Positions 14,149 to 14,459 of a stretch of 22,597 nt of DNA are shown here, piece by piece. The translations under genes were made by a program, and so were the position numbers. Each line of letters starts with the position of its first letter. Positions within the stretch are counted from its first letter, which is position 1. The notes below the pieces were generated by a model. The model saw nothing but the letters and a program-made list of their open reading frames with translations. It made no database searches and was not told the DNA's origin. This DNA comes from a virus (Duplodnaviria > Heunggongvirae > Uroviricota > Caudoviricetes), in IMG/VR virus record IMGVR_UViG_2874933748_000003; one strand, written 5' to 3'.

Positions 14149-14223
14149 TGGAGCGGGCAGCGGGAATCGAACCCGCATCATCAGCTTGGAAGGCTGAGGT
14201 AATAGCCATTATACGATGCCCGC
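14149..14223 (-). tRNA. tRNA-Gly (anticodon UCC)
   Basis: Reverse complement GCGGGCATCGTATAATGGCTATTACCTCAGCCTTCCAAGCTGATGATGCGGGTTCGATTCCCGCTGCCCGCTCCA; acceptor stem pairs, anticodon loop CTTCCAA, encoded CCA. Confidence 0.85.
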
Positions 14224-14226
14224 ATA

Positions 14227-14302
14227 TGGTGCCGACTACCGGAATCGAACTGGTGACCTACTGATTACAAGTCAGTTGCTCTGCCTGCTGAGCTAAGTCG
14301 GC
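14227..14302 (-). tRNA. tRNA-Thr (anticodon UGU)
   Basis: Reverse complement GCCGACTTAGCTCAGCAGGCAGAGCAACTGACTTGTAATCAGTAGGTCACCAGTTCGATTCCGGTAGTCGGCACCA; anticodon stem ACTGA/TCAGT, loop CTTGTAA. Confidence 0.85.
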
Positions 14303-14304
14303 GC

Positions 14305-14381
14305 TGGCCCACCACCGAGGACTCGAACCTCGCACCGTCAACTTAGAAGGTTGATGCTCTATCCGGATGAGCTAGTGGTGG
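14305..14381 (-). tRNA. tRNA-Arg (anticodon UCU), with an unusual C1-G72 start to the acceptor stem
   Basis: Reverse complement CCACCACTAGCTCATCCGGATAGAGCATCAACCTTCTAAGTTGACGGTGCGAGGTTCGAGTCCTCGGTGGTGGGCCA; anticodon stem TCAAC/GTTGA, loop CTTCTAA. Confidence 0.8.
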
Positions 14382-14382
14382 T

Positions 14383-14459
14383 TGGTGGCCCTTGCTGGAC
14401 TTGAACCAGCGACCTGGCGATTATGAGTCGCTCGCTCTGACCAACTGAGCTAAAGGGCC
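14383..14459 (-). tRNA. tRNA with anticodon CAU, probably Ile2 (lysidine) type rather than elongator Met
   Basis: Reverse complement GGCCCTTTAGCTCAGTTGGTCAGAGCGAGCGACTCATAATCGCCAGGTCGCTGGTTCAAGTCCAGCAAGGGCCACCA; anticodon arm GCGACTCATAATCGC resembles E. coli ileX-type tRNAs as I recall them. Confidence 0.8.

Follow-up and report, generated by a model that had tools for sequence, protein, structure and literature searches.

Why should a lambdoid prophage that has been fragmented by insertion sequences (IS) carry four intact tRNA genes packed almost end to end, and what would such genes do for the phage? The question is raised by the IMG/VR virus record IMGVR_UViG_2874933748_000003 (Caudoviricetes), a 22,597-nt stretch of DNA which was analysed in its full length and is called the window in the following. 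In it, genes for tRNAs with the anticodons CAU, UCU, UGU and UCC occupy positions 14149 to 14459. We consider it probable that these genes form a phage-borne tRNA operon which has its place between the antiterminator gene Q and the lysis genes, which supplies decoders for rare codons, and which is related to the ileZ-argN-argO cassette of Shiga toxin (Stx) phages. The array belongs to a family of lambdoid late-region tRNA cassettes that is known and widespread, and it is already annotated in public genomes.

ARAGORN, applied to the whole 22.6-kb window, finds exactly four tRNA genes, all of them on the minus strand, and each is also recognized by the Rfam tRNA family model RF00005, with scores between 56.4 and 70.5 bits as compared to a gathering score of 29 bits. 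An earlier first-pass annotation, made from the letters of the sequence, had proposed four tRNA genes separated by 1-3 nt and had named them in the order CAU, UCU, UGU, UCC. The predictors fold all four of them, and the order given is also the order of transcription, with the addition that this runs along the minus strand. The 3' CCA is encoded in all four genes, and the gaps from each CCA to the next +1 position measure 1 nt (A), 2 nt (GC) and 3 nt (UAU) on the transcribed strand. Since the same 1/2/3-nt spacing is found again in 97 of 120 related viral contigs (among the matches listed), it is not a product of chance.

The first gene is labelled as tRNA-Met by ARAGORN, an assignment which we rejected because the acceptor stem carries C4-G69 and C5-G68 and not the U4-A69 and A5-U68 of tRNA-Met. 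The gene shares 71 of 77 positions with ileY and 69 of 77 with ileX of Escherichia coli K-12, it differs from the ileZ gene of an Stx2 phage in the D and T loops only, and RefSeq genomes annotate it as tRNA-Ile. Moreover, when compared with the identity elements tabulated for bacterial tRNA-Ile (PMC9976931), it is found to carry C4-G69, C5-G68, A73, U12-A23, C29-G41, A37 and A38. Judged by these features the CAU gene is an allele of ileZ and of the Ile2 type, the latter being what the first-pass annotation had suspected. Its anticodon stem is predicted to comprise four base pairs, as it has an A27.C43 mismatch where the host ileY has G27.U43; this mismatch is present in essentially all of 112 sampled copies of the ileZ-type CAU tRNA.

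The Arg(UCU) gene is even further removed from its host counterpart, with only 58 of 79 positions identical to argU, and instead has its body in common with argN of Stx2 phages. Of the identity elements listed for the arginyl-tRNA synthetase ArgRS in the same table, the major determinants A20, C35, U36 and G73 are present, A20 being placed by alignment of the D loop AUCCGGAUA with GGAUA of argU. The acceptor-stem determinants G2-C71 and C3-G70, which are minor elements, are not found, the gene having C2-G71 and A3-U70 next to a C1-G72 pair. The latter had been singled out earlier as unusual. The pair is indeed there, but it occurs in 24 of 25 distinct alleles of the argN scaffold as well as in the argN gene of Stx phages and hence is a trait of the family rather than an oddity of this copy. 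Across these 25 alleles, 97.7% of pair cells conform to the cloverleaf, compensatory double changes are seen at four of its pairs, and none of 500 shuffles matches the observed covariation score. The compensatory changes indicate that the argN scaffold evolves as a tRNA, and on the strength of this sequence pattern we regard C1-G72 as a stable feature of a working tRNA scaffold and not as a defect.

The two remaining genes closely resemble genes of the host. The Gly gene is identical to K-12 glyT over all 75 of its 75 positions, and the Thr gene matches K-12 thrU at 74 of 76, with two changes that both affect the D loop and with an unchanged anticodon arm. Direct comparison with the K-12 locus shows that the homology of either gene ends exactly at the ends of the mature tRNA, whereas spacers and flanks are unrelated: glyT of the host is preceded by GGAT and followed by AGATGT, while the phage Gly gene is placed between UAU and GUCAGAG. 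In the host, thrU and glyT are members of the thrU-tyrU-glyT-thrT-tufB operon and are set apart by 8 nt, tyrU and another 116 nt; in the window they are 3 nt apart, without tyrU, thrT and tufB, in a prophage context and without homology in the flanks. The first-pass claim that the cluster is not the chromosomal operon is borne out by these differences. Comparison with the host tRNA set gives a more divided answer, as the operon is not the native one and yet its Gly gene equals glyT (100% identity) and its Thr gene comes close to thrU (97%). By sequence, therefore, the Thr and Gly half of the array is to be seen as a flank-free copy of chromosomal thrU and glyT and not as a distinct phage invention.

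Can such an array be expressed? A sigma-70-like promoter is predicted shortly upstream of the CAU gene (Table 1). Hexamers of the form TTGCN and TAWYAT occur at a fixed distance from the tRNA in 122 of 134 related loci, in which the spacer and the upstream sequence are divergent, and they are kept in 33 of 38 distinct upstream sequences, including 13 types that differ from one another at more than 5 of 42 positions. The same motif stands before ileZ of an Stx2 phage. In lysogens the cassette thus may well be transcribed from a promoter of its own. In the direction of transcription, the Q-like gene is followed by a terminator-like hairpin and then by the tRNA promoter, and the hairpin is a candidate for a Q-controlled terminator. 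A pattern scanner listed no terminators, this hairpin included; we retain it since it can be recognized directly in the sequence and gives a stable predicted fold. A permissive Rfam search of positions 13900-14720 returned sub-threshold matches only. Among these, isrK, a small RNA of Salmonella prophages (14546-14633, minus strand, overlapping the hairpin; 19.9 as against 50 bits), and the Trp leader (23.1 as against 41 bits) were rejected as chance or artefact, and matches to 'Plastid-ycf2' were dismissed as the antisense of the tRNAs.

Transcription of the cassette would be initiated at its sigma-70-type promoter, which lies some 9 nt ahead of the CAU gene; during lytic growth, Q-modified polymerase would in addition read through the upstream terminator into the cassette. 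From what is established about tRNA processing, an RNase P cut at each 5' end would free the preceding tRNA with a tail of 1-3 nt, which exonucleases would trim to the encoded CCA. If modified and charged as their identity elements predict, the products would decode AUA (after lysidine modification), AGA and AGG, ACA, and GGA. These codons are rare in the host, where they are served by low-copy tRNA genes, and are 2- to 7-fold more common in these prophages, so that the cassette would raise the translation capacity for the late and cargo genes of the phage. As to its assembly, copies of host thrU and glyT, cut down to their mature tRNA sequences, may have been added to an ileZ/argN-type pair, with spacers of 1-3 nt.

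The codon usage of related prophages is in accordance with such a role. We compared 235 distinct open reading frames (ORFs; 53,876 codons) from the 36 viral contigs that contain the exact array (among the matches listed) with one 50-kb core segment of K-12 (41 ORFs, 14,686 codons). The highest prophage-to-host ratios among the 61 sense codons are those of AGG (7.5), AGA (5.7), AUA (4.2), CGG (3.4), CGA (2.8), ACA (2.4), UCA (2.3) and GGA (2.2), in this order. The cognate codons of the four tRNAs, AUA, AGA, ACA and GGA, thus occupy ranks 3, 2, 6 and 8. The probability that four random codons all fall into the top eight is 1.3e-4, and it is 0.015 when only codons ending in A are considered. The annotated genes of one intact relative show frequencies per thousand, as compared to the host, of 8.7 versus 2.4 for AUA, 8.1 versus 1.2 for AGA, 10.1 versus 5.4 for ACA and 14.3 versus 6.0 for GGA. 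The phage ORFs of the window itself follow the same trend, except for AGA. These results support a role in codon supplementation for all four genes. They agree with the first-pass view of the cluster as a source of decoders for the rare codons AGA and AUA, and extend it to ACA and GGA.

Then again, there are observations that weigh against our interpretation. The host sample, a single segment with 42 genes, is small, and the enrichment in part reflects the general bias of acquired DNA towards codons ending in A or T. Of the four tRNAs, one is identical and another nearly identical to a host tRNA, and these two would hence bring a gain in dosage only. The window itself has no late genes left to be translated. 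The promoter scan found 2 sites where a shuffle control leads to an expectation of 1.6, and the tRNA promoter, with 9 of 12 consensus matches, is not significant alone; we retain it as a candidate because its hexamers are conserved and not for its consensus score. Finally, the most common sister allele in the second position of the array is Lys(UUU), and its codon AAA ranks only 30th of 61. As this allele is not explained by codon use, codon supply cannot be the sole force that shapes the cassette.

Table 1. Coordinates of the tRNA array and of other features of the window
Feature	Position	Strand	Remarks
tRNA-Ile2 type, anticodon CAU, ileZ allele; first gene	14383..14459	-	ARAGORN; Rfam 70.5 bits
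tRNA-Arg(UCU), argN-type scaffold, C1-G72, G73	14305..14381	-	ARAGORN; Rfam 56.4 bits
tRNA-Thr(UGU), near-copy of thrU	14227..14302	-	ARAGORN; Rfam 69.8 bits
tRNA-Gly(UCC), identical to host glyT	14149..14223	-	ARAGORN; Rfam 64.9 bits
Sigma-70-like promoter (candidate)	14469..14498	-	TTTGCA-18-TATTAT or TTGCAG-17-TATTAT; ends 9 nt before first tRNA
Intrinsic-terminator-like hairpin	14547..14577	-	CCCGC/GCGGG stem, A run and U run, bidirectional; -20.8 kcal/mol, z -3.5
Q-like late antiterminator gene (DUF1133)	14649..15203	-	intact; directly upstream of cluster
Structured 182-nt region 3' of tRNA-Gly	13967..14148	-	two long hairpins; -61.4 kcal/mol, z -4.1; ended by IS600
IS3-family element of 1.26 kb (IS600 in matching E. 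coli records)	1445-2706 (inverted), 3293-4552, 12706-13966, 20848-22106		
Partial IS600 copy	12227-12655		complete copy (12706-13966) 50 nt further on
IS1, two direct copies	~16425-17190 and ~19941-20710		
hok/sok toxin-antitoxin locus	17285-17609	-	prophage early region; sok 118 bits (Rfam)

The surroundings of the cluster identify the window as a lambdoid prophage that has been fragmented by IS elements. On the transcribed strand the tRNA genes are preceded by intact genes for a DUF1367 protein, YbcO and a DUF1133 protein. The latter is Q-like (Pfam DUF1133 over its full length, E 2e-107; Phage_antitermQ 29.4 bits with a cut-off of 26), and 190 nt separate the end of its gene from the first tRNA. 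In intact E. coli relatives the cluster is placed between this Q-like gene, or another type of Q, and the genes for holin, lysozyme and spanin. In the window, IS600 follows 182 nt downstream of tRNA-Gly and the next phage genes are tail genes; the lysis and head genes and most of the tail genes have been lost. The four full copies of IS600 together with the partial one suggest that this loss of lysis, head and tail genes was mediated by IS600. The structured 182-nt region behind tRNA-Gly is the same in two related loci (L001 and L137) up to the end of IS600 at position 13966, is followed by the holin gene in L001, and is kept in related prophages and in the Stx phage phi467. A stretch of 2134 nt that comprises the cluster and its flanks (13967-16100) is 100% identical in several genomes rich in IS1 and IS600, a composition in keeping with a host of the Shigella type, and the copies of Shigella flexneri are about 99% identical. 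In the early region of the prophage, the hok/sok locus is flanked, along with DUF551, HNH and DUF4014 genes, by the two direct copies of IS1.

How widespread is this arrangement? When IMG/VR was scanned for the argN-type scaffold, at least 120 contigs were found to carry it. Among the matches listed, the exact CAU-Arg-Thr-Gly array with its 1/2/3-nt spacers is present in 36 of 120 contigs and a CAU-Lys(UUU)-Thr-Gly array in 61, the remainder being truncated or variant. At least 80% of a 421-nt query is found in 522 of 5426 complete E. coli genomes (about 10%), ten records show an identity of at least 99%, and near-identical arrays are present in isolated phages. The fused Thr-Gly junction also occurs in species representatives of S. 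flexneri (three copies), E. coli, E. ruysiae, Citrobacter braakii and Enterobacter hormaechei. The same enterobacterial junction on a 423-nt contig of Corallococcus exercitus (L156; coverage 0.67) is probably a contamination. In phage JLK-2012 (L145, 1404-1637) an Asn(GUU)-Thr-Gly array follows a Q gene; the annotated Thr gene of this array is not called by ARAGORN.

But is the supply of rare-codon decoders the only way to account for the array? That it represents the chromosomal thrU-tyrU-glyT-thrT operon in a rearranged or misassembled form, as the near identity of its Gly and Thr genes to glyT and thrU might suggest, is extremely improbable, since tyrU, thrT and tufB are missing, the comparison of the flanks refutes a common locus, and the same array is found in many independent assemblies and in isolated phages. 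We also think it very unlikely that the array mainly serves as RNA punctuation, that is, as a series of RNase P sites at which leader and late mRNA would be separated, thereby fixing where the latter begins and how stable it is, with decoding being secondary. Such a function would fit the position of the array at the very start of the late unit, between the terminator-like hairpin and the lysis genes, the minimal spacers which make RNase P processing a requirement, and the strongly structured region 3' of the last tRNA. However, a single tRNA would suffice for this purpose, the cassette seems to have a promoter of its own, and the identity elements, the anticodons matching the codon bias and the compensatory evolution all point to working decoders. 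More thought is due to the idea that the cassette acts in counter-defence by replacing host tRNAs which are cut by P2-OLD, with tRNA-ThrU(UGU) as its main target, or by PARIS or PrrC, both of which target Lys(UUU). According to a paper of 2025 (PMC12445682), P2-OLD arrests phage lambda through cleavage of tRNA-ThrU(UGU), which takes place at paired CNG motifs of the anticodon stem, and phage-borne UGU tRNAs, including that of the lambdoid phage 21, rescue the cells by means of an altered CNG motif together with a shortened stem, both of which are needed. The presence of a UGU tRNA in the cassette is in line with this idea, and so are the sister alleles Lys(UUU), Val(UAC) and Asn(GUU), which are also substrates of OLD and are no decoders of rare codons, the A27.C43 mismatch by which the ileZ-type tRNA has a shorter anticodon stem than host ileY, and a few Thr alleles with a changed 3' CNG and a shorter stem. 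The Thr gene of the window shares the UGU anticodon with tRNA-Thr21 of phage 21 and with tRNA-Thr6 but, unlike these two with their altered CNG and short stem as described there, it keeps the sensitive arm of the host, its CUG at 28-30, CAG at 40-42, A37 and stem of 5 bp all being those of thrU. Of the resistance features only the anticodon is found in it, the altered CNG and the shortened stem being absent, and the tRNA is predicted to be sensitive to P2-OLD. An anti-P2-OLD reading of this allele was therefore rejected. Moreover, an additional host tRNA-ThrU gives little or no protection (PMC12445682), the Gly gene is identical to that of the host and has a paired CNG motif, and about 97% of the sampled Thr copies keep the wild-type arm (among the matches listed). 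For the alleles of the window we thus hold counter-defence to be unlikely; in the wider family it may still be of importance.

A different objection concerns the copy in the window rather than the family. This copy could be an inert relic, leftover prophage DNA of no benefit to the cell which is intact merely because the time for decay has been too short. The first-pass annotation had taken intact tRNA genes in a degraded prophage as a possible sign of retained function, and this argument does not hold. All 24 differences between the window and intact E. coli prophages are located at 15477-16094, whereas from position 15476 to the end of tRNA-Gly a Q-plus-tRNA block of about 1.3 kb is 100% identical to them, intergenic DNA included. 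As non-coding DNA is identical too, the lack of substitutions in the tRNA genes carries no signal of selection; an attempt to derive purifying selection from the substitutions was uninformative, and the pattern looks like that of a mosaic block. The genes for the Q-like protein, YbcO and the DUF1367 protein are just as intact, the damage to the prophage came about by IS insertion and deletion and not by point decay, and the late genes to be served are deleted. In addition, in a second prophage of related genomes (L135 and L138) an IS3-family insertion at ~6815-7992 has removed everything beyond the CAU gene without evident consequence. On the other side, the conserved promoter of the cassette would make it independent of prophage induction, multiple copies persist in IS-ridden genomes of the Shigella type, and the expression of AT-rich acquired genes is known to respond to additional copies of rare tRNAs that have a single gene. 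The prophage of the window is dead, and its cassette is stranded but perfect in sequence. With a promoter that seems to be its own, the cassette may plausibly still be expressed, and the copy probably adds to the host supply of the four tRNAs. That it is nevertheless an inert relic we consider somewhat unlikely.

In the wider family, the anticodons in particular are subject to variation. The argN scaffold of the second position carries UCU in the window, UCG in argN of an Stx2 phage, UUU (Lys, the most common) or UGU (Thr). The UUU and UGU alleles of this scaffold have C33 instead of the near-universal U33 and an A51.C63 mismatch in the T stem (L003 and L004, each at 3206-3282; L129 2501-2577; IMG/VR loci). 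Bodies derived from the host are switched too, with UCU or UUU on thrU and UAC on glyT (L143 1101-1176 of phage SerU-LTIIb; L088; L002 3053-3123; L091). The UAC copy of the glyT body may be decaying, as its acceptor stem has lost 1 nt and its CCA is damaged. Both the Gly(UCC) and the Thr(UGU) gene of the window exhibit the paired CNG pseudo-palindrome at 28-30/40-42 and the A37 that mark substrates of P2-OLD. In a few thrU-like alleles (L002 3127-3202, L091 and one other copy from IMG/VR), the 3' side of the anticodon stem is changed from CAGU to CAUC or CACC, which removes one CNG and shortens the stem, as is reported for resistance to P2-OLD.

One might imagine from this an array that is modular and evolves fast, a single mutation in the anticodon being enough to give a fixed tRNA body a new specificity, and that is driven by an arms race with P2-OLD, PARIS and PrrC. 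We put this forward as a speculation that is rather unlikely to be correct. If it were true, the Ile2-Arg-Thr-Gly set of the window would be one state of that system, and the family would provide a natural counterpart of the recruitment of an Arg(UCU) tRNA to Thr(UGU) that Saks et al. reportedly achieved in the laboratory in 1998. Such a system would be unusual as well, given how rarely anticodon shifts that change identity occur in enterobacterial chromosomes (PMC3923123). The variation within the family, such as Lys(UUU) with C33 and Thr with an altered stem, resembles answers to tRNA-cleaving defence and is absent from the window itself. In view of the repeated switching of anticodons on fixed scaffolds, the wider cassette family may merit a dedicated study.

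Taken by itself, the array of the window is of little consequence, being a routinely annotated phage tRNA cassette with what is likely to be a textbook role. A modest value lies in three of its properties, namely that half of it is a flank-free copy of thrU and glyT, that its own conserved promoter would allow it to work in lysogens or where the prophage is dead, and that all four anticodons match the strongest codon mismatches between prophage and host.

The closest known system is the ileZ-argN-argO cassette of Stx phages of the 933W/Sakai type, for the original description of which we rely on record annotations and general knowledge. Both cassettes follow the Q antiterminator gene and precede late or cargo genes, and they have in common the promoter-like motif, an ileZ-type first gene, an argN scaffold with C1-G72 as the second, and a 1-nt spacer; over the CAU and UCU half of the array, the identity to ileZ-argN of Stx phages amounts to 88-90%. 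The comparison with phage-borne ileZ, argN and argO genes to which the first-pass annotation had pointed thus identifies the CAU gene as an allele of ileZ and the UCU gene as an allele of argN, whereas argO finds no match. The two cassettes differ in the anticodon of argN, which is UCG in the compared Stx2 phage and UCU in the window, and in that argO (UCU, with a normal G1-C72 pair) is absent from the window and its place is taken by the genes derived from thrU and glyT. More distant parallels are provided by the tRNA clusters of virulent phages such as T4 and T5 and by the polycistronic tRNA operons of the host, in which spacers of a few nucleotides and separation by RNase P are common. As in T4 and T5, the genes in the cassette of the window are arranged head to tail and lie only a few nucleotides apart. 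Different from these, it contains only four genes, belongs to a temperate phage, encodes the CCA of every tRNA and is in part copied from the host.

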